DNA of 64,000 bases from Nitrospirota bacterium (GTDB lineage: Bacteria; Nitrospirota; Thermodesulfovibrionia; UBA6902): assembly GCA_016217725.1 (NCBI GenBank), contig JACRHB010000220.1, positions 11,970-75,969 on the forward strand, read 5' to 3'. The notes beneath the pieces were generated by a model. The model was not told where the DNA came from and ran no database searches. It worked only from the letters and a program-made list of their open reading frames with translations. Of the stretch, positions 3,153 to 51,448 are shown one piece after another (the first letter of the stretch is position 1; the number at the start of each line of letters is the position of its first letter). The position numbers and the translations under genes were made by a program.

Positions 3153-3161
3153 CAAATAAAT

Positions 3162-3213
3162 AAAGTTGTTAGTTGTTAGTTTTTAGTCTAACAACTAACA
3201 ACTAACAACTTTA
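3162..3213. terminator. perfect palindrome (GTTGTTAG)n / (CTAACAAC)n between lysS and lolC; terminator-like hairpin
   Basis: aaagttgttagttgttagtttttagtctaacaactaacaactaacaacttt; the same word-palindrome recurs at 11652-11710. Confidence 0.6.
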
Positions 3214-4463: not shown

Positions 4464-4560
4464 CACCCTCCCCTTCATCCCCTCCCATCAAGGGAGGGGA
4501 GATTAAAAAGTCTCCTCTCTCCTTGTGGGAGAGGGTTAGGGTGAGGGGGATTTGAGAGGG
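4464..4560. repeat. CCCCTC/GAGGGG hairpin-cluster repeat (family also at 39626-39731, 47556-47660, 60065-60165, 61576-61619)
   Basis: caccctccccttcatcccctcccatcaagggagggga...ctctctccttgtgggagagggttagggtgaggggga; arms of nested GC-rich stem-loops. Confidence 0.7.
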
Positions 4561-7020: not shown

Positions 7021-7434
7021 TTAAAAGAAAAGCAGATGGTTCACTTCTTCCATCATCTTTGTTATGTCTGTAAAGGGAACGACTTTTACCGTTACTTCCG
7101 CGCCGAATTCTTCTGCATCGATCACAATGTCGTTCTCTGTTAAACCGAACCTGTCGAGGTCTTCTTTGCATACAAGAACGTTCAGATCGAGAAGGAGCGA
7201 CATCTTGATATGTGTTTCGGTGCTTGTAAGTTTATACAGATCCATCGCCTTCTGATCTTTTTTGCAGTTTAGAACGCCGTCGCCAATAAACGCAATGTCC
7301 GCCGTGACGACGTCGCCTTCATTCAGATAAACCTCAACGCTCTGGGACGCTATGGCATGAGTAATGGCCAGTTTTGGATTTTCACTCTTGTACCCCGGTC
7401 TTTGAACGATAAATCCGAGTTTAGTCGTTGCCAT
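7021..7434 (-). CDS. DsrE/DsrF (TusC/TusD)-family sulfur relay protein
   Basis: 137 aa; N-terminal KLGFIVQRPGY and ...VLVCKEDLDRFGL resemble the TusC/DsrF pattern; lies between dsrE-like and tusA. Confidence 0.6.
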   Translation of the reverse strand: MATTKLGFIVQRPGYKSENPKLAITHAIASQSVEVYLNEGDVVTADIAFIGDGVLNCKKDQKAMDLYKLTSTETHIKMSLLLDLNVLVCKEDLDRFGLTENDIVIDAEEFGAEVTVKVVPFTDITKMMEEVNHLLFF

Positions 7435-7810: not shown

Positions 7811-8107
7811 CTATAACCAAGCAGTTTTATCGTATTCGTTGAAGATCAAATCTACTATATCGCTGTAACTTATAACCTTAACGTTGTCGGCGACGTCTGC
7901 ATTGCCCAGGCCCCTTGTCTGCAGGTCGTCTATCAGGACATAAAAGTCGGCTGTTTTTTGCAGCAGGGATGAGGGACTTCCTTTCTCTTTGGTTGTGGCA
8001 TGGTAAACGCCGTTTTGAACAAGTATAATGCAGAGCTTTTCAGGATTTAACCGGTCAAGAGTGTCTACATTAAGCCTGTAATCACTTACAAAAGCAGCTA
8101 ATTTCAT
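7811..8107 (-). CDS. DsrH/TusB-like protein (start at MKLAAF with AGGAGG RBS; ORF-track start 8188)
   Basis: 99 aa; ...LCIILVQNGVYHA... matches the DsrH/TusB LLLQDGV motif; GGAGG 7 nt upstream of ATG 8107. Confidence 0.6.
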   Translation of the reverse strand: MKLAAFVSDYRLNVDTLDRLNPEKLCIILVQNGVYHATTKEKGSPSSLLQKTADFYVLIDDLQTRGLGNADVADNVKVISYSDIVDLIFNEYDKTAWL

Positions 8108-8299
8108 ATGTACCTCCTGAATGGAAAATATGTTGGAAGTTTCTAAAAAAAGATGAATAATTTTATCCGGTAACCAGTTTTTTGTCAAGAAAGAATGAGG
8201 GTATAAAAATTCTTTATAAAAAAGCTTTGACGTAAGCCGTATCCGGTTAACGTGACCGTAAGAAACCGGACACGGACAACGGTCACGATCAACGTTTTT

Positions 8300-9640
8300 T
8301 CATCCTTCCAGCTTTCTCATTATCTCCATAAATCCCGGGAAAGACGTATTAATGCAATCCGTGTCGGAGACCACCGTCTCTCCGTCAGCCAAAAGCCCGG
8401 CGACAGCCAGCGACATTGCGATCCTGTGGTCGCCATAGCTTTGGACCACGGCGGATCTTAACTTTTCCCTACCTTCAATGATAAGGCCGTCTTCAAGCTC
8501 CGCAACATTGACCCCCATCTTCCGCAGCTCCGAAGCAACGGTCGCTATTCTGTCCGATTCCTTCACCCTCAATTCCTTTGCCCCGGTTATCTTTGTTTTT
8601 CCCTGAGCCAATGCCGCAGCTACGCAAAGAATCGGGAATTCGTCTATGGTCTTTGGAACCATCTCGCCGCCGAGATCTATCCCCGAAAGAGTTGAGTGTT
8701 TAACATAAATATCCGCAACGGGCTCTCCGGAGACTTCTCTCTCATTTTCGAGTCTGATGTCGGCGCCCATTGTCTGAAGTATCTCAAGCAACCCCGTTCT
8801 TGTCGGATTGACCCCGGTGTTTTTTATCAATATCTCCGAGCCGGGGACCAATATGCCGGCAGCGATGAAAAAAGCAGCCGATGAGAAATCCGCCGGCACG
8901 GTTAAATCCTGAGGACTTAATACAGTCCTCCCTTTAACGCGTGCCGTTGAACCCTCGACTTTTATCTCTGCTCCTGCCGCTTTCAACATGCGTTCGGTAT
9001 GGTCACGAGACTTTTCAGGCTCAGTTACGGTTGTAACGCCGTCGCAGTAAAGACCGGCAAGCAGAATGGCTGATTTAACCTGTGCGCTTGCAACGGGAGA
9101 TTTATAAGTTATCGGCTTGAGCTCCCCGCCCGTTACACTTAAAGGGGGATAACCGTTTTCCGATTTAAACACCGCGCCCATCTGAGTCAGAGGCTCCATT
9201 ACCCTTCTCATAGGCCTGCGTGTTAATGAGGCGTCGCCTTTCAACATTGCAGAGAACGGCTGACCCGCAAGGACGCCGCAGAGAAGTCTCATCGTTGTTC
9301 CTGAATTCCCGCAGTCTATGTCGCCTTGCGGCTTTCGCAAGCCCGATAGCCCGTTACCGTTGATTATTACTACCCCCCCTTGTTCCCCCCTTAGCAAGGG
9401 GGGGATGGGGGGGTGACTTCTGACTTCTGACTTCTGACTTCTGACTTCTATCTCCACCCCCATCTGTCTGAACGCCCCGACGGTGCTGAGGGGGTCTTCC
9501 GCGTGCAGGAAATTCCTTATAACGCTTTTGCCTTCTGCAAGGGCTGAAAGTATAACGGCGCGATGGGAGATCGATTTGTCCGGCGGGGGGATGAGCTCAC
9601 CGCGCAGAGGGTTTGTGAATTTAATTCTAATCTGATCCAA
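8300..9640 (-). CDS. aroA: 3-phosphoshikimate 1-carboxyvinyltransferase (EPSP synthase), with an in-frame ~23-aa repeat-derived insertion
   Basis: 446 aa; class II EPSPS motifs (ISHRAVILSAL, DCGNSGTTMRLL, RVKESDR); the extra loop VRSQKSEVRSHPPIPPLLRGEQG is encoded by the palindromic/tandem repeat at 9373-9448. Confidence 0.95.
   Translation of the reverse strand: MDQIRIKFTNPLRGELIPPPDKSISHRAVILSALAEGKSVIRNFLHAEDPLSTVGAFRQMGVEIEVRSQKSEVRSHPPIPPLLRGEQGGVVIINGNGLSGLRKPQGDIDCGNSGTTMRLLCGVLAGQPFSAMLKGDASLTRRPMRRVMEPLTQMGAVFKSENGYPPLSVTGGELKPITYKSPVASAQVKSAILLAGLYCDGVTTVTEPEKSRDHTERMLKAAGAEIKVEGSTARVKGRTVLSPQDLTVPADFSSAAFFIAAGILVPGSEILIKNTGVNPTRTGLLEILQTMGADIRLENEREVSGEPVADIYVKHSTLSGIDLGGEMVPKTIDEFPILCVAAALAQGKTKITGAKELRVKESDRIATVASELRKMGVNVAELEDGLIIEGREKLRSAVVQSYGDHRIAMSLAVAGLLADGETVVSDTDCINTSFPGFMEIMRKLEG
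9373..9448. repeat. G-rich palindrome plus (TTCTGAC)n tandem repeat embedded in-frame in aroA
   Basis: cccccccttgttccccccttagcaagggggggatgggggggtgacttctgacttctgacttctgacttc; the same style as the intergenic hairpin repeats. Confidence 0.7.
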
Positions 9641-10487
9641 GGAGTTTTCTTGCCTCTTGGGCCCTTATAAATTCTTTTTCAAGGCCGTCCCAGTCCGATC
9701 TTTCAATAAGCCCTGTTACGTGAGAGATGGAAGAGGAGAATTTTTTTAGACTCTTTAATATATTCTTTTTGTTGCAGGCGCATATATCCCGCCAGAGGCC
9801 CGGGGGGCTTAATGCGATCCTCGTCATGTCCCTCAATCCTCTGCCGCCGTAAGGGAGAATCTTGCCGTCAGCCTTCATGATGCCGTTTACCAATGCATAG
9901 GCGGCCACGTGCGGCATGTGGCTTACCGAGGCATAGATCATGTCATGCGCTTCAGGTTTCATAAGCAATGTTTTTGAGCCGACTGCCTTCCAGAGGGCAA
10001 TAATCGTTTTGAGCGCGTTTTTGTTCGTATTCGGACCGGGGGTAATGATGCAGCGAGCATTCCGATAAAGATCGGCAGAGGCGCAGCTTATGCCGGAGCA
10101 TTCCTTCCCCGCAATTGGATGCGCTCCCACAAAGTGCACGCCTTCCGGCATCAGAGGCTCAATCTTTTTAACTATCAGGGCCTTTACGCTGCCCACGTCG
10201 GTGACTATTGCGCCTTTCTTTATGCCGCCTCTTATATTTCCGACAATCGCTTCAAACTGCCCGACGGGGACCGCAAGTAAAATCAGGTCGGCGTCCTTTA
10301 TACCTTCCGCGTGAGAAGTGGAATAATTGTCTATGATCCCAAGCCTTTTTGCCTTGATTAAATTTTTCTTATTCCTTCCGATGCCGGTTATCCGGCCCTT
10401 GAACCCTTTCTTTTTAAGGGCCAGGGCGAATGAGCTGCCCATAAGTCCGACGCCGATTATTGCAATGTGTTTAAAATGTATGGTCAT
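9627..10487 (-). CDS. tyrA: prephenate (arogenate) dehydrogenase
   Basis: 286 aa; N-terminal Rossmann fold GVGLMGSSFA; TyrA-family core; located within the aromatic amino-acid operon. Confidence 0.85.
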   Translation of the reverse strand: MTIHFKHIAIIGVGLMGSSFALALKKKGFKGRITGIGRNKKNLIKAKRLGIIDNYSTSHAEGIKDADLILLAVPVGQFEAIVGNIRGGIKKGAIVTDVGSVKALIVKKIEPLMPEGVHFVGAHPIAGKECSGISCASADLYRNARCIITPGPNTNKNALKTIIALWKAVGSKTLLMKPEAHDMIYASVSHMPHVAAYALVNGIMKADGKILPYGGRGLRDMTRIALSPPGLWRDICACNKKNILKSLKKFSSSISHVTGLIERSDWDGLEKEFIRAQEARKLLGSD

Positions 10488-10499
10488 AAGTTGTTTTTT

Positions 10500-10555
10500 G
10501 TAGCGTCGGGGTTAATCCCCGACGATGAACGCCCCCGATAAACGAGGGCGCTACG
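10500..10555. repeat. GTAGCG...CGCTAC twin-hairpin element between tyrA and hisC
   Basis: gtagcgtcggggttaatccccgacgatgaacgcccccgataaacgagggcgctac. Confidence 0.55.
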
Positions 10556-11648
10556 TACGGGCGGGTTTTAAACCCGCCCCTTCTTCCTTCAACGCTTCCA
10601 TAAATCTCTTATTCTCCTCAGGGAGTCCTATTGTAACACGGACTGCGCCGGCTCCCATCGGTCTTATGATGACCCCCTTTTGAAGAAGGTCGTTGTACAG
10701 TTTGAAAGCCGTATCTTTTTTCAAAGGGATATAAATGAAATTTGCCTCTGTCGGAACGTAATCCATACCCAAAGCTTCAAGCTCCTTGTAAAGATATTTT
10801 TTGCCTCTTTCGTTTATCCTTTTGGTCTTTGCAAGGTGCTTCTCGTCTTTCAATGCCGCAAGGGCGGCCTTCTGCGCCGGAGAGTTTATGTTGAACGGCT
10901 GCCGCACCTTGTTCATTTCTGTAATTATGGATGCCTTTGCAATTGCATACCCTATCCTGAGACCGGCAAGACCGTATATTTTAGAAAAGGTCCTAAGGAT
11001 AAGTATATCCCTGTCCTGCCTGAAATACTTCATGCCGTCCGCATAATCCGGCGCAGAGACATATTCATAGTATGCTTCATCAACGACCACGAGTACCCCT
11101 TCGGGAATCTTCTCCATAAAGGCGTCCATTTCATCCTTTGTATTTATCGTTCCCGTAGGGTTATTGGGATTTGCAATAAAAATTATCTTTGTCTTTTCCG
11201 TTATCCTTGAAGCCATCTCCTGAAGGTCATGCCGCTGCCCTTTAAGCGGCACAATTATATTGTTGCCGTGCGCCGCCTGAGCAATCGAGGAGTATACGAC
11301 AAAAGAGGGGTGCGCCATTAACGCCTCGTCTCCGGGAGCGAGGAACGTCCTCACCGCCAATTCTATAATCTCATTAGAGCCGTTGCCGAATATTATCTCA
11401 TCCGGGCTGACCCGCAATTTCTCCGACAAGGCCTGACGGAGATAATGGCAGCTTCCGTCAGGATATCTGTTCAGGTCTTTTAAACCCTTGCGAAGCGCCT
11501 GGATTGCGAGAGGCGACGGGCCGAGAGGGTTTTCATTCGATGCAAGCTTTATCGAGCCTTTAATCCCCAGCTCCCGCTCAAGCTCTTCCAACGGCTTGCC
11601 CGGGACGTAAGGCGTTAAGGTTTTTATGTGTTCGGGGGCGTATATCAT
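10551..11648 (-). CDS. hisC: histidinol-phosphate / aromatic aminotransferase (class II PLP aminotransferase); the C-terminal 9 aa are encoded by a palindromic repeat
   Basis: 365 aa; ...KLASNENPLGPSP..., ...TFSKIYGLAGLRIGY (PLP lysine region); the C-terminus ...EEGAGLKPART comes from the gggcgggttttaaacccgccc element. Confidence 0.9.
   Translation of the reverse strand: MIYAPEHIKTLTPYVPGKPLEELERELGIKGSIKLASNENPLGPSPLAIQALRKGLKDLNRYPDGSCHYLRQALSEKLRVSPDEIIFGNGSNEIIELAVRTFLAPGDEALMAHPSFVVYSSIAQAAHGNNIIVPLKGQRHDLQEMASRITEKTKIIFIANPNNPTGTINTKDEMDAFMEKIPEGVLVVVDEAYYEYVSAPDYADGMKYFRQDRDILILRTFSKIYGLAGLRIGYAIAKASIITEMNKVRQPFNINSPAQKAALAALKDEKHLAKTKRINERGKKYLYKELEALGMDYVPTEANFIYIPLKKDTAFKLYNDLLQKGVIIRPMGAGAVRVTIGLPEENKRFMEALKEEGAGLKPART
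10558..10595. repeat. palindrome GGGCGGGTTTTAAACCCGCCC(CTTCTTCCTTCA), copy 1 (the hisC 3' end is encoded inside it); copy 2 at 14257-14294 lies in-frame inside the Mo-enzyme gene
   Basis: A ~35-nt block shared with 14257-14294; both encode ..EGAGLKPA.. on the minus strand. Confidence 0.7.
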
Positions 11649-11651
11649 GAG

Positions 11652-11710
11652 GAAGTTGTTAGTTGTTAGTTGTTAGTCCAAAAACTAAAAACTAACAACT
11701 AACAACTTTT
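11652..11710. repeat. (GTTGTTAG)n/(CTAACAAC)n palindrome between pheA and hisC (same family as 3162-3213)
   Basis: gaagttgttagttgttagttgttagtccaaaaactaaaaactaacaactaacaactttt. Confidence 0.65.
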
Positions 11711-11713
11711 TGT

Positions 11714-12781
11714 TCATTCCGCCGACGGGTAGGAACCCAGAACCTTCAGATAAAGACATTCCTTTTTTACTTCATTAAGCGCCTTCTTGACCCCTTTGTC
11801 TTCCATATGGCCTTCCATGTCTATGAAGAAGATGTATTCCCATGCCTTTCTCCTCGAAGGCCTGGATTCGATCTTTGTGAGGCTGATTTTGTTTCTCGCA
11901 AACGGCCTCAATATTGAATAAAGGGCGCCGGCTCTGTCTTTTATGGACAGCATGACCGACGTCTTGTCCTTGCCCGTCACGAGCGGCGATTCTTTTGCAA
12001 TCACCAGGAAGCGGGTGAAATTGTTTTTGTAGTCCTCTATTCCCTTTTCAACGAATTTGAGATTATAAACCGAGGCGGCAAGCTCGCTTGCAACCGCAGC
12101 CGCAGAGGGGTCTTTTGAGACGCGCTTGGCAGCAGCGGCGGTGCTCAGCTCCTCAACGACCGGCGTGCCCGGGAAATTCTTTTCGAGCCAGCCCTTGCAC
12201 TGCGCCGTCGCCTGCGGATAGGAATAGATCTTGTTTATGTCCGACCTTACGCCTGTTTTTGACAGGAGGTTGTGCCTTATCTCAAGCATTATCTCAAAGG
12301 CGATCTTTAAATCCGAATCGATAAATACGTCGAGGGTTGAATTGACCACCCCTTCGGTTGAATTTTCGATCGGCACCACTCCGTACTGCGCCTTCCCCCT
12401 CGCCACCGCTTCAAAGACGCCCTTTATGGTGCTTTCGGGCAGGTATTCCGCAGAGGAGCCGAATTTCCTGATCGATGCAAGATGCGTGAAAGTTGCGGTC
12501 GGCCCGAGATAGGCGACCTTTAAAGGCTGCTGCAGGGAGAGCGACGCGGAGAGGATTTCTTCATAGATCAGCTTTAGGGCATTGTCGGGAAACGGCCCCG
12601 GGTTGTTTCCCGAAAGTCTTCTCAGTACCTCTCTCTCTCTTTCGGGTGAATGGATGTTTAAATTCTTATCCTGTTTTGCCTTGCCGATCTCTATCGCGAT
12701 CTCCGCCCTCCTGTTCAGTAATTCGAGGATGCGGAGGTCGAGCTCGTCGATCTTTTTCCGGAGCTTATCGAGTTCAGACAT
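11714..12781 (-). CDS. pheA: bifunctional chorismate mutase / prephenate dehydratase (P-protein); start at MSELDKLRK (ORF-track start 12934)
   Basis: CM domain (LDKLRKKIDELDLRILELLNRRAEIAIEIG), PDT domain (VAYLGPTATFTHLA...) and C-terminal ACT domain. Confidence 0.9.
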   Translation of the reverse strand: MSELDKLRKKIDELDLRILELLNRRAEIAIEIGKAKQDKNLNIHSPEREREVLRRLSGNNPGPFPDNALKLIYEEILSASLSLQQPLKVAYLGPTATFTHLASIRKFGSSAEYLPESTIKGVFEAVARGKAQYGVVPIENSTEGVVNSTLDVFIDSDLKIAFEIMLEIRHNLLSKTGVRSDINKIYSYPQATAQCKGWLEKNFPGTPVVEELSTAAAAKRVSKDPSAAAVASELAASVYNLKFVEKGIEDYKNNFTRFLVIAKESPLVTGKDKTSVMLSIKDRAGALYSILRPFARNKISLTKIESRPSRRKAWEYIFFIDMEGHMEDKGVKKALNEVKKECLYLKVLGSYPSAE

Positions 12782-13047
12782 GATGAAGGTTAATTTAGCA
12801 ATTACCCCCGGATTTTTCAAGGGATGGGCTTTTAACTTAAGAACGGCAGTTATATCCACAGATTTCACAGATAAAGACAATGACATAAATGAGATAGTCA
12901 CATATTGTATATTCACCCAAAAGGTGAAAGGCAAAAGTCAGTTAAGCTTTTAATAACTCTGTGATAATCTGCGTTAATCTGTGGATAAATGCTTTTTTTA
13001 GGTTTAAGGATTTGTAGAAGCAAAAAACCGGCCTTGGCAGGAGTCAG

Positions 13048-13126
13048 GAGTTAAGAGTTAAGAGTTAAGAGTTAAGAGTTGAGAGTTAACGGGCTCTAAA
13101 ACTTTTAACTTTTAACTTTCAACTTC
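13048..13126. repeat. (GAGTTA)n ... (AACTTTTA)n imperfect palindromic word-repeat; overlaps the stop of the Mo-oxidoreductase gene
   Basis: gagttaagagttaagagttaagagttaagagttgagagttaacgggctctaaaacttttaacttttaactttcaacttc. Confidence 0.6.
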
Positions 13127-16100
13127 TTTAATCATCCTCACCATCACGTCCCCGAACCCGGGCATGCCGGTGAAAGGGGAAAGGTTATCCGGATCGAGGC
13201 ATTCATTGATATTCGGAATGTATTCGGAGACATTATTTATAAAACCCGGGCCGGAAGCCTTTTGTCCGCCGGGACCGAATGCGGTCTTGATGACGCCCGG
13301 CATTACTTCTTCCGTCAGAAAAACTTTCCCGCTCACCCGCTTTTTGAAGGGCGTTTCGAGCGCTATGACGTCTCCGTTTTTAACACCCAGCCGCTCGCCG
13401 TCGGAATTATTCACGGCTAAGACGGGAATGGAGCCCCCTTCATCCAGCCGCTTCATGCACTCCGTCTCCGTTTCCGCAAGATACGGGCAGACCGCCGTCA
13501 TCGTCATTGAATGATGGACCCTGCCTGTAATCAACTGGAACGGATACTCCCTGCTTATCTGTTTGTATTGTGAATTCTTCGGATTCCATTTGCAGTCTCT
13601 CCAGTAAAAGGTCGTCGGGAAACCGGTCCCGAGCCTTCTGTTGCTGTTTTCGAGGTAACCGAACTTGAATTCAAATTTCCCTGAGCCGGTCTTCGGATAT
13701 ACGCCGGATGAGGCGCCGGTTGACTTTCTGTGCCTGTAATAGCTTGCAGGCCATACCGCTGCGCCGTTATGTTTTCTGAGCCAGTCCACTGTGAGCGGTT
13801 CGCCCTGTTTGAGGAGCTTCTTTCCCCAGACGGCGGTCGGATTATCCGGTGCGCCGGTTATCAAACAGCCTTCCGGCAGATCCGGGTAAGGGAGCGGTTC
13901 TCCGACATTGTAATACCCCGGCGTTTCGGCAAGGAGCTCATTTATAAAATCCTCTTCTTCGTTATATCTCCGCCCGAAATCTTCCGCCCTGACGTCGGGA
14001 TCGCCGTTTCTTACTAATGCTTCGGAAAGGGTAAGCATAATTTCAAAGGGAGTCCTTGCTTCATAAAGAGGCTTGATTACCTGATCCCTGATCGCTATTT
14101 CCGGGCTCATTGTGTAAACGTCGCTGACTCCCATCCTTTCGAGATAACCGGCTTCGGGCAGAATTATGTCCGCATATTTCCCGGTTTCAGAAATGTGCGT
14201 GTCGATAAAGACTATAAGCTCAAGCTGGTATCTGCTTAAGGATTCCCCTTCATCCGTAGGGGCGGGTTTTAAACCCGCCCCTTCTCCTTCATCAAAAGGA
14301 AGGGGCAGGAGATCGTTTTTCAAGGTCAAGGCGTCAATCCAGTCCGGGGTGCTGCCTGCCGTCATGACGGGATTGCCCGCCCTTGTTATAAAGGCCTTTA
14401 CCGGGTAGGAATAGTCTTTAAAGACCCCGTGCTTTAGCTTTATCCCGTCCCTTATTTTTTGCGGCAGATCGGCCAACACGCCTTTCCATGCAGCCGGGAA
14501 ATCGCCGAAAAGATCTTTATGAAGCCCGGAAAGCTTGTCCGAAACCTCGCTCCCGTCAATATTTCTGCCGACGACCTTTTCCAGAAAATCTTTTCCTGCG
14601 GCTTTATCCCCCCTCCGGGGCTTTTGTGAATCGATGAATACAAGCCCTCCCGGCGTATCGATATTGCCCGTTATCAAGCAGAGCGCCGTCATGAGTATCG
14701 ATGAAACGTCGCCGTTTGCATGGTGTGAAACGCCGTGCATCCCCAGCTCGATCGAGGCGGGCTTTGTGCTGCCGAAAAGGTGCGATATCCTGATGATGTT
14801 TTCCGCGGATATCCCCGTCTTCTCCGCCGCCCATTCAAGGGTGAAAAATTTCATATCGTTTGAAGGGTCTCTCTTTTCCGAGTATGAAAGGAGCGCGTCT
14901 TTGAATTCCTCCCAGCCGTTTGTGTAATTTTTTATGAAATCGTGATCTATATATTTCTGCTCCGGATCATTCTGGATGATGTAATGGAGCATTGCCGCAA
15001 GCAGCGCCGCATCCGTCCCCGGTGTTATGGGAAGCCATATGTCCGCATGAGCGGCGGAATTGGTATATGCGGGGTCAATCACAATATACATGCATCCGTT
15101 TTCTTTTGCCGCAGGTATCCCCCGGGACATGTAATTGAATCTCGTCGCCACAAACGGGTTGGCCCCGAGATTCAGGATGAGCTTTGCGTCATGCTCCCTT
15201 TTGAGATGCAGCCCGCCGTCGTCATCTCTGATCAATAAAGGCCGTTGAACGTCGGGCAGCGGTCTTTCATCGCCTAACATAAGGCCCTGTCCCCATCTGC
15301 GGTTGGGATCGCAAATGCTGCCGTGGTTGTATGTGTTCGGAGTGCCGAAGGCATGAAACAGCCTGTAATACGCCTCTCTGTCGGTCACGTCGCCGCAGTC
15401 TAAAAAAACGGATTCCGCCCCGTATCTGTTTTTTATCTCGAGCAGCTTCTTTGCAATATAATCGGAAGCCTCCTCCCACGTGATTTCCTTCCATTTATCC
15501 TCGCCCCTTTCCCCGGTCCTTATCAGAGGGGTTTTTATCCTGTGAGGAGAGTATGTAAGCTGCAGCCCGGAAGCGCCCTTTGCGCAGAAGGCCCCGTTGT
15601 TTACAAGTGTATGCGGACTGCCGTATATTTTTTTGGCAATGCCGTTGTCAACAAGCACGGATATCCCGCATTCGGAAGGGCACATGGCGCATGATGAATA
15701 TCTTGATTTTAATGTGCCTTCTGTCTGTTCAGGAGATTTCTTTACCTTAATGCGTCGGGTAGATTTTGTGTCTGAGGGGATCGTATAATCCTTCAGCGGA
15801 GCATTGCAGACGTCACCTTTAAAGATGTAAAAGACCGAGGGGTTGGTCCCGAGCTCGGGATTGAGGACTTTTAACTGATGCTTGGAAAGCTCAGCCGATA
15901 TTTCACTTTTGGGGTCGTTTATGTCGCCGAAAAGCATCGCCCTCCCCATGCAGCTCTGCGCACAGACTGGCTGAAGACCCCTTGTAATTCTTTCATAGCA
16001 GAAATCGCATTTCTCGGCCTGTCCCGTGCTCGGGCTTATCTCGATCGCGTTATAAGGGCATTTATCCTCGCACATCTTGCAGCCGATACAGCCGCTCCCA

Positions 16101-16369
16101 TTCAAGATGACGACGCCGTCCTGATTTTTATAAAGGGCTTTCTCCTTGCATTCTTCAATGCACGGTGCAGTATCGCAGTGATTGCAGAGACGGGGAAGGA
16201 AAACTTTTTTGATTTGCGGATAACCGCCGGACCGATAAGTCTCAACCCTGCAGCGGAAAGCTCCAAACGGGATATTATATTCAGCCTTGCACGTTACCTG
16301 ACAGGCGTGGCATCCGATGCACCTGTCGAGGTCGATCAACATTCCGTATCTCTTTTGATGTTTCGCCAT
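13112..16369 (-). CDS. molybdopterin (MopB-family) oxidoreductase fused to an N-terminal 4x[4Fe-4S] ferredoxin module (PsrB/PsrA-like fusion); no Tat signal
   Basis: 1085 aa; the N-terminal ~190 aa carry four CxxCxxCxxxCP ferredoxin motifs (CIGCHACQVTC...CNHCDTAPCIEEC...CIGCKMCEDKCP...); then the MopB CxxCxxxC (CAMCPSECG) and Molybdop_Fe4S4, Molybdopterin and Molydop_binding regions. Confidence 0.85.
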   Translation of the reverse strand: MAKHQKRYGMLIDLDRCIGCHACQVTCKAEYNIPFGAFRCRVETYRSGGYPQIKKVFLPRLCNHCDTAPCIEECKEKALYKNQDGVVILNGSGCIGCKMCEDKCPYNAIEISPSTGQAEKCDFCYERITRGLQPVCAQSCMGRAMLFGDINDPKSEISAELSKHQLKVLNPELGTNPSVFYIFKGDVCNAPLKDYTIPSDTKSTRRIKVKKSPEQTEGTLKSRYSSCAMCPSECGISVLVDNGIAKKIYGSPHTLVNNGAFCAKGASGLQLTYSPHRIKTPLIRTGERGEDKWKEITWEEASDYIAKKLLEIKNRYGAESVFLDCGDVTDREAYYRLFHAFGTPNTYNHGSICDPNRRWGQGLMLGDERPLPDVQRPLLIRDDDGGLHLKREHDAKLILNLGANPFVATRFNYMSRGIPAAKENGCMYIVIDPAYTNSAAHADIWLPITPGTDAALLAAMLHYIIQNDPEQKYIDHDFIKNYTNGWEEFKDALLSYSEKRDPSNDMKFFTLEWAAEKTGISAENIIRISHLFGSTKPASIELGMHGVSHHANGDVSSILMTALCLITGNIDTPGGLVFIDSQKPRRGDKAAGKDFLEKVVGRNIDGSEVSDKLSGLHKDLFGDFPAAWKGVLADLPQKIRDGIKLKHGVFKDYSYPVKAFITRAGNPVMTAGSTPDWIDALTLKNDLLPLPFDEGEGAGLKPAPTDEGESLSRYQLELIVFIDTHISETGKYADIILPEAGYLERMGVSDVYTMSPEIAIRDQVIKPLYEARTPFEIMLTLSEALVRNGDPDVRAEDFGRRYNEEEDFINELLAETPGYYNVGEPLPYPDLPEGCLITGAPDNPTAVWGKKLLKQGEPLTVDWLRKHNGAAVWPASYYRHRKSTGASSGVYPKTGSGKFEFKFGYLENSNRRLGTGFPTTFYWRDCKWNPKNSQYKQISREYPFQLITGRVHHSMTMTAVCPYLAETETECMKRLDEGGSIPVLAVNNSDGERLGVKNGDVIALETPFKKRVSGKVFLTEEVMPGVIKTAFGPGGQKASGPGFINNVSEYIPNINECLDPDNLSPFTGMPGFGDVMVRMIKEVES

Positions 16370-23959: not shown

Positions 23960-24041
23960 GAGTTTATTTTACCTTTTATTTCGTTGATTTCTACCATAAA
24001 AATCCTTATCCTTAATGAAACAGTAAATTATGGAAAGATCC

Positions 24042-25115
24042 ATGCCGAAAACAAATGAAGCGACTGATACGGATTTGAAAGTAATAGAGTGGCTTCAGCA
24101 GGTCGACCGGGAACGAGGGTGACGTCTTTGATAAACGCTGATGACATAAAAATCCTTATCAAAGAAGGGGAAGGGCTTACCGTCGAATTCAAAGAGCGTT
24201 TTACGTCGCGCATTGATGAAGATATTGTTGCATTTGCAAACACCAAGGGCGGGATAATTATTCTGGGCGTCAGAGATGACCGGACTGTAAGCGGCGAGAA
24301 ACTGACAAATGATCTTAAAGCCCGCATCAATTCCGTTGCAAGGAACTGTAATCCCCCGGTTCAGGTAAAGATAAAACAATTACAGAACATCATAGCCATA
24401 GAAGCGCCTCAGGGGGAGGAGAAACCGTATAGTTGCAGTTCCGGTTAATGCCGCCGTACTTTTCCTGATGAAGCATTTAAACCGCCGCAGCGAAATAAAA
24501 GGCATAAATCGTAACGACGTCTATGAGATACCTTTTGAGGCCTTGCGCGAGGCAATCGCCAACGCAATAATTCATCGGGACTACAGCGTGCGCGGCACAA
24601 GTCTTATGGTTGAAGTATATGACGACAGAGTTGAGATAATAAATCCGGGCATATTCCCGGGACGTCAAATGAAAGATTTCGGCAAGATTTCCGTTCGGAG
24701 AAACGAACGTATTGCCGACCTCTTTTTCCGTATGGATAAGGTGGAGCGCGCAGGTACGGGAATAAGGCGGATGAAAGAGGCAATGGCGGAGGCCGGCTTG
24801 CCTGTGCCGGACATTAGACAGACGGATTTTTATACAATTATATTTAAACGGCCAATTGAACGGGCCGGGGTAAAGGTCGGAAGAAAGTCGGAGAGAAAGT
24901 TGGGTGAAAAGTTGGGTGAAAAGTTGGGTGAAAATGAAAAAAGAGTTTTAGAAATTATTGTAAAAAATAAGTTCGCAACAATAACTGAGCTTTCCAGGTC
25001 ATTGGGAATAAGCACGACCGCTGTAGAAAATAATCTTGCAAAACTGAAAGCAAAAGAGATCATCAAACGCATAGGCCCTGATAAGGGAGGACATTGGGAG
25101 ATTATCGACTGCTAA
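24042..25115 (+). pseudogene. AlbA_2 (Schlafen-like) plus HATPase_c_4 plus HTH transcriptional-regulator-family gene, disrupted by frameshifts (fragments 24042-24122, 24089-24448, 24468-25115 in three frames)
   Basis: N-terminal AlbA_2 signature (GEGLTVEFKERFTSRIDEDIVAFANTKGGIIILGV), then a RecG-C-terminal-like ATPase domain (NAIIHRDYSVRGTSLMVEVYDDRVEIINPG) and a wHTH; homologues are single ~450-aa ORFs. Also contains a (GGGTGAAAAGTT)x3 tandem repeat at 24895-24936. Confidence 0.6.
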
Positions 25116-25284
25116 ATTTCAAAAACGATTTGATATTGTGTCGAAGGCAAATGAAGCGGCTGATGCGGATTTGGAAGCTGTTGAGAGGCAAAAGAGGGTT
25201 AGCAAGGCTTTCGTCTTTTTCAGAACTTTAAACTTTTATCAATTTTAAAGTAAAATTATCGAAGACAATTTTCAAGAGGAGATT

Positions 25285-26304
25285 ATGGATAACATAACTG
25301 TTAACCTTGATGGCATTCCAACTGAAATCAAACGATTAAAAATTCCCCTTAAGAAACTTATCCTCGATATAGAAAACCCCCGCATACAATATTTTCTTGA
25401 TACTCGCTTGAATGATGATGTAACTCAAGAGAAAATCAAGTTTGCTTTGGCTGAAGGCAATGACCAATACGAAAAGCTGAAAGAGCATATAGAAAGAAAT
25501 GGCGGCATTTACGATCCGATATGGGTTGTGCCCAAAGACGAATATTTTGTTGTCATCGAAGGCAACACAAGAGCTTTCATCTATGAGGAGTTGTCTGAAA
25601 AATATGTTAATGATGAGAAGTGGCATTCTATTGATGTATATCTTTTGCCATATAAGATCAATCGAAACGTTATTAATTTTATTCGATTGGAAAAGCACCT
25701 CTTTGGGCCTACACCGTGGGATGCTTATGAGAAGGCAAGAGAACTTTATCGACTAAATACAGATGAAGATTACTCACTGAAGCGACTCGAGCAACTAACG
25801 AAATTAAAAGCATCTGACATCAGAAATAATATTCAGGCTTTTATGGATATGGAGAAACAATATCTCCCTAAATACAATAAACCGGCTGAAAGACTCAAGT
25901 TCAGTTACTTTGTTGAATTCAGGAAAAATAAAGAACTGAAACGTATGGTCAAAGAGGGAAAAGTTTCACTTATGGATTTTTGTGATTGGGTTGGCGAAGG
26001 GAAGTTCAGACGCGGTGAAGATATACGTAAACTTCCATTAGTGCTTAAAGATGAACAATCAAGGCAAGCGCTTATTGATGATAGTTTTCAGGCAGCTCTT
26101 GATCAGTTGGAACAAAAGAACCCGGCGGCGAAATCAAAGCTTTTTGAGAAGATAGAGGATGTAGTTGAAGGACTTGAAGGTCTTCCTTTTGGCGAATTGG
26201 ACGAAATTAAAAGAGGACAACAACCGGCTAAGGTTGATTCCCTAAAAAGACTGCATTATGTGACAAAAAATCTTTTGGAAGATATAGGCACTCTTACTCA
26301 ATAG
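25285..26304 (+). CDS. ParB/Srx-fold (ParB N-terminal nuclease-like) domain protein, island gene 1
   Basis: ParB box-like LILDIENPRIQYF and arginine-finger-like VVIEGNTRAFIY; paralogous to 28124..29170 (shared ENPRI, V(I/V)EGNTR, WDAYEKA); ~33% GC. Confidence 0.55.
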   Translation: MDNITVNLDGIPTEIKRLKIPLKKLILDIENPRIQYFLDTRLNDDVTQEKIKFALAEGNDQYEKLKEHIERNGGIYDPIWVVPKDEYFVVIEGNTRAFIYEELSEKYVNDEKWHSIDVYLLPYKINRNVINFIRLEKHLFGPTPWDAYEKARELYRLNTDEDYSLKRLEQLTKLKASDIRNNIQAFMDMEKQYLPKYNKPAERLKFSYFVEFRKNKELKRMVKEGKVSLMDFCDWVGEGKFRRGEDIRKLPLVLKDEQSRQALIDDSFQAALDQLEQKNPAAKSKLFEKIEDVVEGLEGLPFGELDEIKRGQQPAKVDSLKRLHYVTKNLLEDIGTLTQ

Positions 26305-26711
26305 TGGCTGGGAACAGACATCAATTTATTCTTGGTTTGGTTGTTAAGAAGATGCGGGAAGAAGGGGCGGAGCTTTACGGCATTGATGGTAACTATCCAG
26401 GGCTCTTCGGCGAAAAAGTGCCATTGCCGCCTCAAATATTAAGACACCGCCCCGATGCGATAGGAATAAAAAGTAATGGGCAATTATGCATAGGGGAAGC
26501 AAAAACAGAGGGGGATATTCTCAATACAAGGACATATGAGCAGTTGCAGGACTTCACCAGTGTTGAAATAAACGGCTCAAAGTGCGAAGTATTTGTTGGC
26601 GCACCGCAATCCAGTGAAAATAATTTTGGAAAAAGTCTGGAGAAAACCGGATTGAAAGGATGTGATAATCTCCATGTACTTTATATTCCAGACGAAATAA
26701 TCAATGATTAA
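26304..26711 (+). CDS. small PD-(D/E)xK nuclease-fold-like protein, island gene 2
   Basis: 135 aa; ...HRPDAIGIKSNGQLCIGEAKTEGD gives the D...(E)xK spacing typical of restriction-endonuclease-like folds; start overlaps the stop of gene 1. Confidence 0.4.
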   Translation: MAGNRHQFILGLVVKKMREEGAELYGIDGNYPGLFGEKVPLPPQILRHRPDAIGIKSNGQLCIGEAKTEGDILNTRTYEQLQDFTSVEINGSKCEVFVGAPQSSENNFGKSLEKTGLKGCDNLHVLYIPDEIIND

Positions 26712-30185: not shown

Positions 30186-30187
30186 TC

Positions 30188-39731: not shown

Positions 39732-39837
39732 AATTTCTTCCAGTCTAATATAGGGTAACCACCACTCTTCACTGAGTTATCTTTGTTCGGCAAGCGGACT
39801 TATGGCTTTTGTTATGTTTCTTTTGTAATAATATTGA

Positions 39838-40704: not shown

Positions 40705-41526
40705 ATGTCGGACCATACCAACCATGAGCATGATCACCATCATGACCACCACCAGGAACACGAGCATCACCATGAGCATGAGCACCAGCACGATCATCAT
40801 CATGACCATGATCATAAACCCGTAAAGGTTAAATTCAGAAGCTTCAAGATGGACAGGGCTTTTGCCTTTGACCCTAAGAAGGGCGAGAAGGGAATAATAA
40901 CCTATACTATAACGGAGCCTGCGAGGATAAGCATAAAGGTAATTAAAAAAGGGACGAGAGAGCTGTACCTTTCGACTATATTAAACTGGGAAATGCGCGA
41001 TGCGGGGACGCATACCGAGTACTGGGACGGTAAGGATTACAGCGGTAATATCATTGAAGACCTGTCTTCGGTTTTAATGGTGATGGAAGGAGAGCCGATG
41101 TCTACGTTCAAACCCGGCGCTTATTCCGTCGAAGGCCTGTCGGACGAAGAGATCATACACGGCCATAAATGGGGACATCCTCATAATTACTATCAGGAAG
41201 GCACAAATGTAATACCGGTGATCTCGATAACTTCCGTCAAAGACGGAGACGTTCTTTCAGGTATTGTGAAAGTTGAATCAAGGCTTGAAACGAGCGAAAG
41301 AGGCTACGGTGAAAAAGTCGGCTACGGCGTCAGGTACTATTTAAATAATATTCTTGTGACCGAAGAATTTTATGACTCAAAGAGCGACGGTAAATTTTCG
41401 TATGACATCGATACGACCGCCTTCCCCGACGGGGAATATATGCTGTACGTAGGGATGTGCGATCATCATCAGCACACAACCTCAAGGGGCTGCAAGGTTA
41501 AGATAAACAACAATTCCGGGAATTGA
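40705..41526 (+). CDS. His-rich (N-terminal HDHHHDHH..HEHEH..) Ig-like/FlgD-like beta-sandwich protein
   Basis: The N-terminal 37 aa are >60% His/Asp/Glu; the rest is paralogous to 42027..42737 (FDPKKGEKGIITYTITEPARISIKV / FDPALGKPATISYKLTKAGTIRLRI; YWDGKDYSGNIIED / QWDGRDASGNIIDN). Confidence 0.6.
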   Translation: MSDHTNHEHDHHHDHHQEHEHHHEHEHQHDHHHDHDHKPVKVKFRSFKMDRAFAFDPKKGEKGIITYTITEPARISIKVIKKGTRELYLSTILNWEMRDAGTHTEYWDGKDYSGNIIEDLSSVLMVMEGEPMSTFKPGAYSVEGLSDEEIIHGHKWGHPHNYYQEGTNVIPVISITSVKDGDVLSGIVKVESRLETSERGYGEKVGYGVRYYLNNILVTEEFYDSKSDGKFSYDIDTTAFPDGEYMLYVGMCDHHQHTTSRGCKVKINNNSGN

Positions 41527-47660: not shown

Positions 47661-47683
47661 AGATCAAATAAAGGAGCAGTATT

Positions 47684-48611: not shown

Positions 48612-50120
48612 ATGAACGTGATCTTGGTTCAACCCGCGACTTCGGACAGGGGATTTATTCATCTGGGATTGGGCTTTATTGCAGCCTCCCTGGAGCAAAG
48701 GGGGCATAAGGTAAGCATCCTCGATCTCGGGATAGAAGGCGAGTCCTCAAAAAAGATAAGAAGGATAATCCAGGAGGCGGCCCCGGAAGTGGCGGGGATA
48801 ACGGCGCTTACCCCTACTTATCCGACGGCGCTCAGGATGGCGCAGTTGATAAGGGAGATAAATCCCCGGTGCATAACCGTCTTCGGAGGGACTCATCCCA
48901 CTATATTGACCGAGGAGGTCCTTAATGAGCCCTTCGTGGACATTGTGGTAAGGGGCGAAGGGGAGATAACCATGTGCGAAATATTGGACGCCCTGAAGGA
49001 CGGAAAAGGCCTTTCGAGTATTTCAGGCATTGTCTATAAGGAAAACGGGAAAACGGTCTATAACCCCGACAGGCCTTTCATAGAAGACCTGGACACTCTC
49101 CCGCCGATACCCTGGCATCTCTTTAAAGTGGAAAAATATACCGGCAACCTGAACGGGAGAAGGGCGGTGGGCCTCTCCGCTGCCAGGGGATGTCCTTTCA
49201 GTTGTGTCTTTTGCTACAGAGGCCCGGCTGCCGGCAAGGTCGTAAGGTACTGGAGCCCTGAAAGGGTCGTAAAGGAGGTCAAGCGCGTTAAGGAAAAATA
49301 TAATATAACGGCCTTCCACTTCTGGAACGACGTATTTACTTACGACAAAAAGTGGGCGATCACCCTGTGCGATATGATCATAAAGGAGAAACTGGACATT
49401 GAATGGGACTGTCAGACCAGGGCGGACCTGATCAATGAGGAAGTATTGAGGAAGATGAAAGAGGCGGGCTGCACCGCGATAATGTTAGGCGTGGAGAGCG
49501 GGAGCAATGAGATCCTGAAGCACGTGAACAAGAAGCTGACCAAAGAGCAGATATATGACTCCTTCCAATTGCTCCATCAGGTGGGTTTTGAGACCACCGC
49601 AACTTTTACAATGGGTCTTCCCTGGGACACCAAAGAGACCATCCAGGAAACCATCGATTTCGCCAAGGCGATAAACCCGAGTTTTGCGATGTTCTACGTA
49701 GCCACTCCGTTCCCCGGCTCCCCCATCTGGGAGATCTGCCTTCAGAAAGGGATACCGCTTTCGAGAGACTGGGAGAATTACAGGATCATTCCTTTTGAGA
49801 TAGACCTCGATAAATTCGCCCCTGTCTTTGATACGTCCAGATTGTCCGTAGAGGATTTAAAGAGGTTCATCAAGACCGCCCAGATAGAATTTCAGGTCGG
49901 CAGATTTAAAAAGGGGCAGAGATTAAGGGGTCTGAAAAATATCTACGAGATCTTCGCCTTGATATTCAGACGGAGCAAATCGGTGACAAAGCTGATGCAA
50001 TTGATTTTCAGGGTGCTCGGGGATACGCTCTATCTCATCAGAATAAAGTGCAGAAGTGCAAAAGTGCAAAAGAGCAATAGCGCAGAAGAGCAGAAGAACA
50101 AAAGTGCAAAAGAGCAATAG
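48612..50120 (+). CDS. B12-binding domain radical SAM protein; the C-terminal tail is encoded by a word-repeat
   Basis: MNVILVQP...HLGLGFIAASLEQRGHKVSILD B12-like domain; CxxxCxxC (ARGCPFSCVFCYR); the last ~25 aa (KCRSAKVQKSNSAEEQKNKSAKEQ) read through the GTGCAGAAG repeat. Confidence 0.85.
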   Translation: MNVILVQPATSDRGFIHLGLGFIAASLEQRGHKVSILDLGIEGESSKKIRRIIQEAAPEVAGITALTPTYPTALRMAQLIREINPRCITVFGGTHPTILTEEVLNEPFVDIVVRGEGEITMCEILDALKDGKGLSSISGIVYKENGKTVYNPDRPFIEDLDTLPPIPWHLFKVEKYTGNLNGRRAVGLSAARGCPFSCVFCYRGPAAGKVVRYWSPERVVKEVKRVKEKYNITAFHFWNDVFTYDKKWAITLCDMIIKEKLDIEWDCQTRADLINEEVLRKMKEAGCTAIMLGVESGSNEILKHVNKKLTKEQIYDSFQLLHQVGFETTATFTMGLPWDTKETIQETIDFAKAINPSFAMFYVATPFPGSPIWEICLQKGIPLSRDWENYRIIPFEIDLDKFAPVFDTSRLSVEDLKRFIKTAQIEFQVGRFKKGQRLRGLKNIYEIFALIFRRSKSVTKLMQLIFRVLGDTLYLIRIKCRSAKVQKSNSAEEQKNKSAKEQ

Positions 50121-50212: not shown

Positions 50213-50233
50213 TAAAGAATCAAGAAAAATTTA

Positions 50234-51448
50234 ATGGACTACAACAAATTAAAAGAAGCCGTCATCACTGAAATCGATAAGCTGGCGGAAGAGATGAAGG
50301 CCGTTGCAAAGGCCATTCATGAAAAACCCGAAATAGGTTATCAGGAATACGAAGCCTCACGGCTCCTCTGCGGCTTTCTCGAAAAAAACGATTTTAAAGT
50401 GAAGCGCAATATCGCAGGGATGGAGACGGCTTTTGCCGCCTCCTATCCTGAAAAGGCGGACGGTCCGACAATCGCCTTGTTGGCCGAATATGACGCCCTG
50501 CCCGGCCTCGGGCACGGATGCGGACATAACCTCATCGGCACTGCGAGCGTCGGGGCTGCCGTCGGATTAAGTAAGGTTTTACCGAAGCTGAAAGGAAGAA
50601 TAGCTGTAATGGGCTGTCCTGCGGAAGAGGCCGGGATAGACAACGCAGGGGGGAAGGTCCGGCTGATCAAAAAAGGATCATTCAAAGATATCGACGCCGC
50701 GTTCATCTTTCATCCCTTCCCCATGACGACGGTCGGGGGAGAGACCACAACGCTGCTCGGGCTTGAATTTAATTTTAAAGGTAACCCCGCACATGCCGCA
50801 GGAAATCCCTGGGACGGGATCAACGCGCTGGACGGTGTATTGCTGACCTTCAACGCGATCAACGCCCTCAGGCAGCATATACGCGACGGCGTGCGCATTC
50901 ACGGCATCATAACCCACGGAGGCGACGCCCCGAATATAGTGCCGGAAAAGGCGTCCGCGCGTTTCTTTCTCCGCACGGAGAATAAAGAGTCTCTGCTCGA
51001 GATAATTCAAAAGGTCAAGGCCTGCGCCGAAGGGGCGGCGACGGCGACGGGGACCAAGCTTGAGGTCAATACTTTCTGCAATCTCTATGACTCAATGAAG
51101 AGCAATTCCGTTCTCGCAAGTATCCTCGAAAAGAACCTGAACGCACTCGGCTTGAGCGTTGAAGGCAGGAAAAAGGGGAAAGGCTCCACGGATTTCGGAA
51201 ACGTGACAAGGGTTGTGCCTGCCTGCGAGCTGGGCCTCAGGCTCGGAAACGGCATCGTCCCGCACACGAGGGAGTTTTTGCACGCGGCGAATTCCGAAGA
51301 GGGCTTCAAGGTAATGATGCAGGGAGCAAAGGTGCTGGCCTTAAGCGCGCTGGACCTTCTCTACTCGGACGGCTTACTTGAGAAGGCGAAAAAGGAATTT
51401 GAAGGAGTGCAGAAGTGCAACAGTACAAAAGTGCAAAAGGAAAAATAA
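50234..51448 (+). CDS. M20-family amidohydrolase (M20D; hippurate hydrolase / aminobenzoyl-glutamate utilisation-like)
   Basis: 404 aa; ...ALLAEYDALPGLGHGCGHNLIGTASVGAA... metal-binding region; the C-terminal tail (VQKCNSTKVQKEK) is encoded by the repeat. Confidence 0.85.
   Translation: MDYNKLKEAVITEIDKLAEEMKAVAKAIHEKPEIGYQEYEASRLLCGFLEKNDFKVKRNIAGMETAFAASYPEKADGPTIALLAEYDALPGLGHGCGHNLIGTASVGAAVGLSKVLPKLKGRIAVMGCPAEEAGIDNAGGKVRLIKKGSFKDIDAAFIFHPFPMTTVGGETTTLLGLEFNFKGNPAHAAGNPWDGINALDGVLLTFNAINALRQHIRDGVRIHGIITHGGDAPNIVPEKASARFFLRTENKESLLEIIQKVKACAEGAATATGTKLEVNTFCNLYDSMKSNSVLASILEKNLNALGLSVEGRKKGKGSTDFGNVTRVVPACELGLRLGNGIVPHTREFLHAANSEEGFKVMMQGAKVLALSALDLLYSDGLLEKAKKEFEGVQKCNSTKVQKEK

Follow-up and report, generated by a model that had tools for sequence, protein, structure and literature searches.

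The Rickettsia palindromic elements (RPEs; Ogata et al. 2000, 2002, as reviewed in PMC10969869 and PMC3733652) are palindromic DNA, regarded as selfish, that is found in frame in housekeeping genes, where they are translated and are tolerated owing to their position in surface loops; they form dispersed families of ∼100–150 bp with a conserved encoded peptide. Repetitive extragenic palindromes (REPs) tagged by GTAG or CGTC are short GC-rich stem-loops that are mostly intercistronic but sometimes intragenic, where loops or linkers gain 10–30 residues from them (Di Nocera et al. 2013; PMC3733652); the REPIN/RAYT systems (PMC3116915) are considered together with them here. Heptameric simple sequence repeats are over-represented in bacteria and little studied; the short tandemly repeated repetitive (STRR) sequences of the cyanobacterium Calothrix and the GGGNATC repeats of Xanthomonas and Nostoc are low-copy tandem arrays of obscure function, mostly near the ends of open reading frames (ORFs) (PMC4692102). 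The literature gave nothing specific on heptamer repeats in Nitrospirae. Here we describe a repeat insert that lies in frame in aroA, the gene for 5-enolpyruvylshikimate-3-phosphate (EPSP) synthase, of a Nitrospirota bacterium. The insert combines a heptanucleotide array with a C7/G7 hairpin and is located in a 64 kb stretch of contig JACRHB010000220.1 (the window), to which our searches for further copies of the hairpin and of the array were confined.

The insert is probably a heptanucleotide array that has long existed in a permissive loop, is driven by slippage, was secondarily colonised by palindromes of the genome and is kept by selection on frame only. This interpretation draws on the local structure of the gene, on the variation of the same turn among the nearest AroA proteins and on the DNA of relatives at the orthologous site.

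The aroA gene and its in-frame insert

The features of the locus are as follows.
8300..9640, minus strand: aroA, encoding a class II 3-phosphoshikimate 1-carboxyvinyltransferase (EPSP synthase) of 446 residues, with a TTG start
9414..9449, minus strand: array, (GAAGTCA)x5 on the coding strand and (TGACTTC)x5.1 on the plus strand, found by Tandem Repeats Finder (TRF)
9373..9413, minus strand: 41-nucleotide (nt) two-tier hairpin, encoding (H)PPIPPLLRGEQGG, found from inverted repeats I1–I3 and folds
9373..9441, minus strand: extra peptide, codons 66–88 (VRSQKSEVRSHPPIPPLLRGEQG), delimited by low predicted local distance difference test (pLDDT) scores, an alignment gap and length hypervariability

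The aroA ORF is intact, overlaps the end of tyrA (9627..10487) and belongs to the gene string pheA-hisC-tyrA-aroA (hisC, 10551..11648). Its product is assigned to Pfam family PF00275 and matches the solved structures PDB 3rmt (E = 5e-122, over residues 9–444) and 3tr1 (E = 4e-120). This full-length similarity and the conserved substrate-binding motifs, with KSISHR, GNSGTTMR and DCGNSGTTMRLL all present, place the protein among the class II EPSP synthases; it also has all 96 invariant columns of alignment A1, as the definition of these columns entails. An NCBI entry, 'MAG: Nitrospirae bacterium' (MAG, metagenome-assembled genome), is 100% identical to it, and its 90% identity cluster has a single member.

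The alignments to 3rmt and 3tr1 are both gapped by 18–20 residues exactly at residues 66–88. The AlphaFold2 model, built on 46 homologues, has a mean pLDDT of 90.1; values below 50 are confined to residues 70–86, and the remainder is confidently modelled. Strands assigned by DSSP at residues 63–67 and 89–96 flank the insert, which in this model occupies the turn of a β-hairpin in the N-terminal lobe and is predicted to be disordered. The turn is likely to point away from the interdomain active-site cleft, judging from the known EPSP synthase fold. A sequence-only reading of the locus had placed ∼23 extra codons in a loop of an otherwise intact enzyme with the downstream motif preserved, and had proposed structure prediction as a check; residues 66–88, the intact motif and the predicted turn agree with it. 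As in RPEs, an in-frame palindromic repeat is present, and in the model it is compatible with the fold.

On the coding strand the region reads GAG ATA (GAAGTCA)x5 C7 AT C7 TTGCTAA G6 AACAA G7 TAG TAA TAA TC, which translates as E-I-EVRSQKSEVRSHPPIPPLLRGEQGG-VVII. All of the elements that had been described at 9373–9448 are where the sequence-only reading put them. The array has a period of 7, 5.1 copies and 100% matches (TRF score 72); the (TTCTGAC)x4 described earlier is the same array in another register. With perfect head-to-tail copies, and with a copy number and unit that vary among relatives at the same locus, it qualifies as a simple sequence repeat. The first unit coincides with the native Glu-Val codons of strand 63–67. 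The idea of an imported element does not hold for this part of the insert, which starts on native I-E-V codons (ATA GAA GTC A) in the manner of a microsatellite formed in place. The array begins ∼190 nt into aroA, in the first fifth of the gene, and encodes EVRSQKSEVRS, running through all three frames; the GAAGTCA unit is free of stops in each of them. Its 14-mer occurs only at aroA, with four overlapping matches compared with 0.27 expected, a number that no shuffle reached. No partner array able to pair with (GAAGTCA)n as a tandem-arm hairpin was found in the window.

The hairpin reads C7 TTGTT C6 TTAGCAA G7 AT G7 on the plus strand and corresponds to the C7/G7 palindrome noticed earlier. 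Its outer arms are C7 at 9373–9379 and G7 at 9407–9413, its inner arms are C6 at 9385–9390 and G7 at 9398–9404, and these enclose the loop TTAGCAA (9391–9397) and are separated by internal loops TTGTT (9380–9384) and AT (9405–9406). It includes a perfect 10-nt inverted repeat (9373–9382 and 9395–9404). The 41-mer is unique in the window at up to three mismatches (0 expected), and the pattern C6-N(0-12)-G6 gives one match compared with 0.05 expected. The hairpin folds with −17.8 kcal/mol as DNA (z = −3.1), and the whole insert with −35.2 kcal/mol as sense-strand RNA (z = −1.9). The G7-AT-G7 segment could in principle form a G-quadruplex on the plus strand; the hairpin is the more likely structure, as the C runs compete for pairing. 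As a 41-nt stem-loop it answers to the 20–40 nt GC-rich imperfect palindromes of GTAG-REPs and REPINs. GTAG occurs on the sense strand only after the 3′ arm (GGGGGGG-TAG), so that the plus strand reads CTAC-stem and the 5′ tag of REPs is missing.

Every Pro codon of the hairpin is CCC and every Gly codon is GGG, codons that account for only 27% and 24% of the respective usage in the window. Whatever the frame, runs of C are translated as Pro and runs of G as Gly, and a C/G-run hairpin is for that reason especially tolerable in a loop.

The repeat DNA amounts to 77 nt, and the shortest of the 120 homologues described below have 20 fewer residues. Neither the array (35 nt) nor the hairpin (41 nt) is a multiple of three, so that each alone would break the frame; together they form a 69–77 nt insert without an in-frame stop codon. 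Rfam gave no meaningful match, either for the whole window at the gathering threshold or for 9250–9560 at E values up to 10. An intein, an intron and translational bypass were each considered and rejected on the small size of the insert (69–77 nt), the absence of stops, the in-frame constraint and the absence of an Rfam match. No direct repeat of the kind expected for a miniature inverted-repeat transposable element flanks 9373–9449, the flanks being GAGATA and TAGTAATAATC.

The same turn in relatives

The homologue set consists of the 120 nearest AroA proteins (the best 120 matches), from MAGs of Nitrospirota/Thermodesulfovibrionia; in an alignment of the nearest homologues, at 63–78% identity, the turn that carries the insert varies in nearly every one. 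Coverage is 87–100%, and the case at 87% (P0032) is full length when read from its TTG start. Nearly all of the 120 are full-length single ORFs, as expected under read-through translation.

The turn that carries the insert is the only length-hypervariable site of AroA, with 3–34 residues and a standard deviation of 6.75, compared with at most 1.1 at the other indel sites. Measured from Gly61 to Gly95 of the window AroA, the segment spans 13–44 residues, with lengths of 13 (n = 12), 15 (n = 18), 22 (n = 29), 23 (n = 18) and 29 (n = 6) among them. About 90 of the 120 proteins are longer than the basal segment of 13–16 residues and 31 have no insert (13–15 residues, plus one of 16); the extra residues range from 0 to ∼31. 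The modes at 15, 22 and 29 are spaced by seven residues, which equals three heptamers, and the loop peptides are themselves periodic, with an identity of 0.179 at offset 7 compared with 0.05–0.08 at other offsets from 1 to 12 (112 unique loops).

The insert peptides are hypervariable, and no residue is conserved among them. This bears on the proposal that the extra peptide is itself selected, for example because it gives EPSP synthase a new loop for interaction or regulation. Such selection would accord with the retention of an insert in about three quarters of the homologues and with the exposure predicted by the model for a Pro/Gly-rich segment. It accords poorly with lengths that run from nothing to ∼31 residues without a single conserved position, and with a sequence that is a three-frame read-out of whatever heptamer is there and is predicted to be disordered. 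We therefore consider a selected peptide highly improbable.

In the neighbour-joining ordering that was used as the tree order of the homologues, short and long loops are intermingled. Clean losses of repeat units are seen relative to neighbours, as in P0033 compared with P0028; the loop of P0033, EGSRDLVIN, is nested among EGSRVQGFKGSRDLVIN sequences, which indicates a contraction between repeats. In P0077 and P0100 a further five-residue insert (FKDLK and FKGSR, respectively) lies between the positions of residues 237 and 238 of P0001 and repeats the proteins' own β-turn array peptide, which indicates a second, minor slippage site in aroA. For outgroups, a profile search of genome contigs gave AroA loci of other phyla, all at most 55% identical among the matches listed, and in ∼95 of these the turn is short. 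A search of metagenome contigs with an N-terminal fragment gave at least 19 loci, mostly without inserts.

At the DNA level, heptamer arrays are seen in ten relatives, and one further locus, L110, is free of an insert. The site reads as follows, with the percentage identity after each locus.
L104 (78%, the closest): GAAGTCA AAAGCCA GAAAACA GACTA, then C7 AT C7 TCATCAA G7 TGAA G7
L084 and L107 (75% and 77%): two or three hairpins of the GTAG-GGGCGATTCATGAATCGCCC-GTAC type
L083 (75%): (GTCAGCA)x4, then GTAG-GGGCGAGCGGCCGCTCGCCC-TTAC
L082 (75%): (GAAGACA)3 ... (GAGGGCA)3
L106 (69%): (GAAGTCA)x4 and decayed units
L108 (68%): (GAACACA)x4
L105 (67%): heptamers and a C/G-rich hairpin
L109 (66%): (GAGTYAA)x5
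L081 (65%): five degenerate GAAGTCA units
L008 (55%): GAAGTCA, a C/G-rich hairpin and heptamers
L110 (64%): no insert, GAT ATT GAG GTT AAA AAG GAT GAG ATA ATT

The arrays of the relatives all start at the Glu codon that ends strand 63–67 and comprise 3–10 units of five types, GAAGTCA, GAAGACA/GAGGGCA, GTCAGCA, GAACACA and GAGTYAA. The GAAGTCA unit stands at this same Glu codon in L081, L104 and L106. A lineage-specific insertion, as the sequence-only reading had supposed, is contradicted by these arrays, since L081 and L106 are only 65–69% identical, and equally by the C7/G7 hairpin of L104 (78%) and the C/G-rich hairpins at the site in L105 and L008. That reading had named a similar insertion in orthologues of unrelated lineages as a sign of an ancestral event, and the data go part of the way towards it. 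Its image of a repeat that invaded aroA survives in so far as repeat DNA is tolerated in frame, but with extra residues in ∼90 of 120 homologues the event was not a single invasion of one lineage.

The units found in aroA are free of stops in every frame, whereas the typical intergenic units of the window contain stops. In L109 the TAA of GAGTTAA becomes CAA exactly where the frame would read it as a stop. Perfect (GAAGTCA)x4–5 arrays are present in two lineages; at a third-position identity of ∼47% (one pair measured, the window and L104), their perfection implies recent slippage. The contig of L104 ends in (CTTCTGA)x4 at 7208–7236, the reverse complement of the aroA heptamer, and this contig-end array suggests that the GAAGTCA unit may be multi-copy in the L104 genome.

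Five perfect non-triplet units ∼190 nt into a gene form the classic layout of a phase-variable locus, and a heptanucleotide case is described in Haemophilus (PMC8262952, PMC2651432). On this basis aroA could be a contingency locus in which the 7-nt array toggles the gene and causes a reversible auxotrophy for aromatic amino acids, and the perfect arrays of two lineages do indicate ongoing slippage. We nevertheless judge this very unlikely. The gene serves housekeeping biosynthesis and has no part in surface structures or restriction, the arrays have only 4–5 units and many of them are decayed (L081, L104), which would abolish switching, and the homologues, nearly all of them full-length single ORFs, are uniformly in frame. 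Slippage at aroA appears to be filtered by selection and not used as a switch.

The hairpin of L104 is homologous to that of the window, with 41 nt and equal run lengths and a different loop and spacer. L104 comes from another sample and was assembled independently, and its homologous array and hairpin at the same codon rule out the mis-assembly that the sequence-only reading had proposed to check. Homopolymers and short tandem repeats are error-prone and the source is a metagenome-assembled genome, so that an assembly or sequencing artefact deserves mention; given the architecture shared with L104, the inserts in ∼90 homologues from many projects, the intact frame and an array of only 35 nt, which is shorter than a read, we regard it as extremely unlikely.

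Outside the insert, the aroA genes of the window and L104 encode proteins of 78% identity and agree at only 46.8% of third-codon positions. Within the hairpin, 9 of the 10 four-fold sites at conserved residues are identical, compared with 86 of 208 (41%) elsewhere in the gene (p ∼0.002, our own binomial calculation from the counts). This excess speaks for a functional nucleic-acid element selected within aroA, either the hairpin or a G-quadruplex/i-motif formed by the G7/C7 runs. The element might be a stability or processing site in the mRNA of a pheA-hisC-tyrA-aroA transcript, a pause between folding units or a binding site, with each lineage filling the slot with whatever repeat it has. Its recurrence at one site across homologues that are only 55–78% identical, with three hairpin families, would be explained in this way, as would the restriction of hypervariability to this one turn; the RNA fold of about −35 kcal/mol is stable, and hairpins of a similar kind in the same genome occupy gaps between cistrons, places in which a role as RNA would be plausible. 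Against it, conservation across the homologues extends to neither sequence nor structure, the 31 without an insert and the many with a decayed array and no hairpin are scattered through the tree, and the same kinds of insert occur in unrelated genes. The RNA z-score is modest, there is no Rfam match and no terminator-like T tract at the hairpin, and a scan of 8200–11800 for terminators and promoters did not flag it. On balance a functional element of this kind is unlikely.

Origin and maintenance of the insert

The history that we favour, a slippage-driven array later colonised by palindromes, would have proceeded as follows. The native codons ATA-GAA-GTC-A, with which strand 63–67 ends, would have given rise to the heptamer array. 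As the comparison of relatives attests, replication slippage then expands and contracts this array and changes its unit. Since seven is not a multiple of three, only frame-restoring changes survive in the essential aroA gene, and this filter produces length classes seven residues apart together with the seven-residue period of the peptides; the units seen are all without stops in the three frames. Palindromes rich in GC, drawn from those that the genome already had, may then have settled in or beside the array in some lineages. Their kind would differ by lineage, the two-tier C7/G7 hairpin in the window and its nearest relative, and GTAG-tagged REP-like hairpins in sister lineages.

A hairpin of 41 nt is not a multiple of three, and its arrival must therefore have been compensated. 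The adjacent array could do so in a single slippage step, because the gain of one unit gives 48 nt and the loss of two units gives 27 nt. Such a one-step rescue would account for the accumulation of arrays and hairpins together at this turn, and it suggests a mechanism in which a slippage-prone array beside the insertion site rescues the frameshift caused by a non-triplet palindrome. The insert would be transcribed and translated as a disordered surface loop without a function of its own, in an enzyme that is presumably active; as DNA it would be selfish or neutral and tolerated, its frame being maintained by selection for the enzyme.

Several observations weigh against this history. Neutral change would have left the C and G runs of the hairpin less alike in the window and L104 than they are, so that the arms are either constrained at the nucleotide level, with the structure selected, or younger than the divergence of the genes, having been re-acquired. 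Nowhere else in the 64 kb is the exact hairpin repeated, and its mobility is therefore a candidate only. Three kinds of hairpin recur at one turn while the many other surface loops of AroA show none, and with this recurrence 'any permissive loop' is not the whole story. A small share of probability goes to a variant in which a lineage-specific process builds and maintains 7–10-nt arrays, along with the long intercistronic tandem-arm hairpins, and the aroA turn is a preferred or selected substrate, a conserved 'structured slot' of the mRNA or DNA for pausing, processing or stability, with the array doubling as a frame-restoring buffer for out-of-frame palindromes.

Related repeats and known systems

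The aroA insert is part of a genome-wide phenomenon. Many 7–10-nt tandem arrays are found on the same contig, and at least nine intergenic C-rich/G-rich hairpins of similar build and different sequence lie at 4478, 39625, 39707, 47568, 47624, 60068, 60095, 60139 and 61577, in keeping with the earlier remark that the hairpin has the style of intergenic ones on this contig. In-frame repeats also recur in other genes. One such feature is the following.
14256–14284, in frame in the minus-strand gene 13112..16369: canonical GTAG-REP GGGGCGGGTTTAAAACCCGCCCCTAC (plus strand GTAG-GGGCGGGTTTTAAACCCGCCCC)

The host gene encodes a molybdopterin-type oxidoreductase of 1085 residues, in which the REP encodes EGAGLKPAPT and is flanked by a direct repeat, GATGAAGGRGAA (DEGE...DEGE); the REP is missing from the orthologues in L082 and L081. 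The same GGGGCGGGTTTAAAACCCGCCCCTAC family provides the last nine codons of hisC (GAGLKPART) and its TAG stop, at 10557–10581. The linker of the cobA-hemD fusion gene is a second in-frame hot spot, between EEFNAEGLI and KFLLPRAE, and holds an 8-mer tandem-arm hairpin in L082 (18572–18644) and a GTAG-REP in L083 (21237–21264), the latter differing from the aroA copy of L083 by one compensatory pair, G-C to A-T. In L106 an (ACAGAGC)x4.7 array at 10788–10820 lies in frame in cmk (cytidylate kinase) and encodes NRAQSTEHRAQN.

Short C-rich/G-rich hairpins (TCCCCTCTTTGACAAAGAGGGGT, ATCCCCCTTTTYCAAAGGGGGA and TCCCCTCCCATCAAGGGAGGGGA) form clusters at 39600–39760, 47550–47690, 60050–60170, 4478–4500 and 61577–61601, some of them adjoining GTAG/CTAC. 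Two-tier C6/G6 hairpins of a similar kind are present in the cyanobacterial loci L050, L077 and L071. In most gaps between co-directional genes of the window there is a long hairpin in which an array of a 7–8 (or 14) nt unit forms the left arm and an array of its complement forms the right; examples are at 3161–3213, 11653–11708, 13041–13125, 46038–46120, 50045–50213 and 51406–51522. Their units are locus-specific (AGTTGTT, GAGTTAA, AAGTGCAA and others), and their minimum free energies (MFEs) as RNA range from −23 to −82 kcal/mol; folding of both strands of the intercistronic hairpins gave no consistent strand bias. Relatives share such gap hairpins, for example L106 at 8046–8137. ORFs 48612..50120 and 50234..51448 each extend into the hairpin that follows, over its left arm (50045–50124 and 51406–51439), so that 8-mer repeats encode their last residues.

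Two nested hairpins of ∼170 nt, at 48395–48565 and 63150–63325, are built from 10-nt units, CACGAATRAA outside and ACGCAGATAA inside, with MFEs of −54 to −63 kcal/mol; whereas the tandem-arm hairpins are each confined to one locus, these two are members of a dispersed family. Where ORF 40705..41526 starts, an imperfect 6/12/18-nt repeat (CATGAG/CATCAC...) at 40723–40815 would give a His-rich segment. The region ∼24000–32000 has a lower G+C content (0.35–0.41, compared with ∼0.48 elsewhere) and strong positive GC and AT skews, and may be a horizontally acquired gene cluster. Pfam searches of ten small ORFs of the window found no Y1 transposase (RAYT) among these ORFs.

The locus demonstrates that one orthologous site of an essential, highly conserved enzyme can harbour nested palindromes and a frame-shifting microsatellite in many diverged relatives, with selection acting on frame only. 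Among the homologues there is a natural series of ∼100 loop variants of EPSP synthase, the target of glyphosate, all at one position and with 0 to ∼31 extra residues; this series maps a permissive insertion site for protein engineering. Tandem-repeat-armed hairpins in most intercistronic gaps are a little-studied feature of these genomes, and the picture of selfish DNA in genes, drawn from Rickettsia and REP-rich proteobacteria, extends to Nitrospirota.

Among known systems, low-copy tandem 7-nt arrays scattered through the genome recall the STRR and GGGNATC repeats, from which the arrays described here differ in having their own unit at each locus, in forming inverted pairs and long hairpins where they are intergenic, and in that one array is read in frame within the body of an essential gene in many of the nearest homologues. 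A non-triplet unit near the 5′ part of the coding region is shared with the contingency loci of Haemophilus (PMC2651432, PMC8262952), but the host here is a core enzyme, the arrays have few units and are frequently decayed, and all homologues seen are in frame. The description of GTAG-REPs is matched by the aroA inserts of L084 and L107 (GTAG-GGGCGATTCATGAATCGCCC-GTAC) and L083 (GTAG-GGGCGAGCGGCCGCTCGCCC-TTAC) and by the window's own GGGGCGGGTTTAAAACCCGCCCCTAC copies at 14256 and 10557; the window aroA hairpin differs from them in its homopolymer arms and in its sole GTAG at the sense 3′ end, opposite to the canonical 5′ tag.

The analogy with RPEs, which had been drawn from the sequence alone, holds in kind, as the aroA insert is an in-frame palindromic repeat in a housekeeping gene and a GTAG-type palindrome is likewise in frame in another gene. 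It fails for the dispersed family, since no second identical hairpin is found in 64 kb and the array unit occurs only at aroA. The insert further departs from RPEs in being a 41-nt homopolymer-armed hairpin with a 35-nt microsatellite, without a conserved peptide and in another phylum, and in occupying one orthologous site in most of 120 homologues, with turnover there. The aroA insert works like RPEs and intragenic REPs, yet belongs to neither family.

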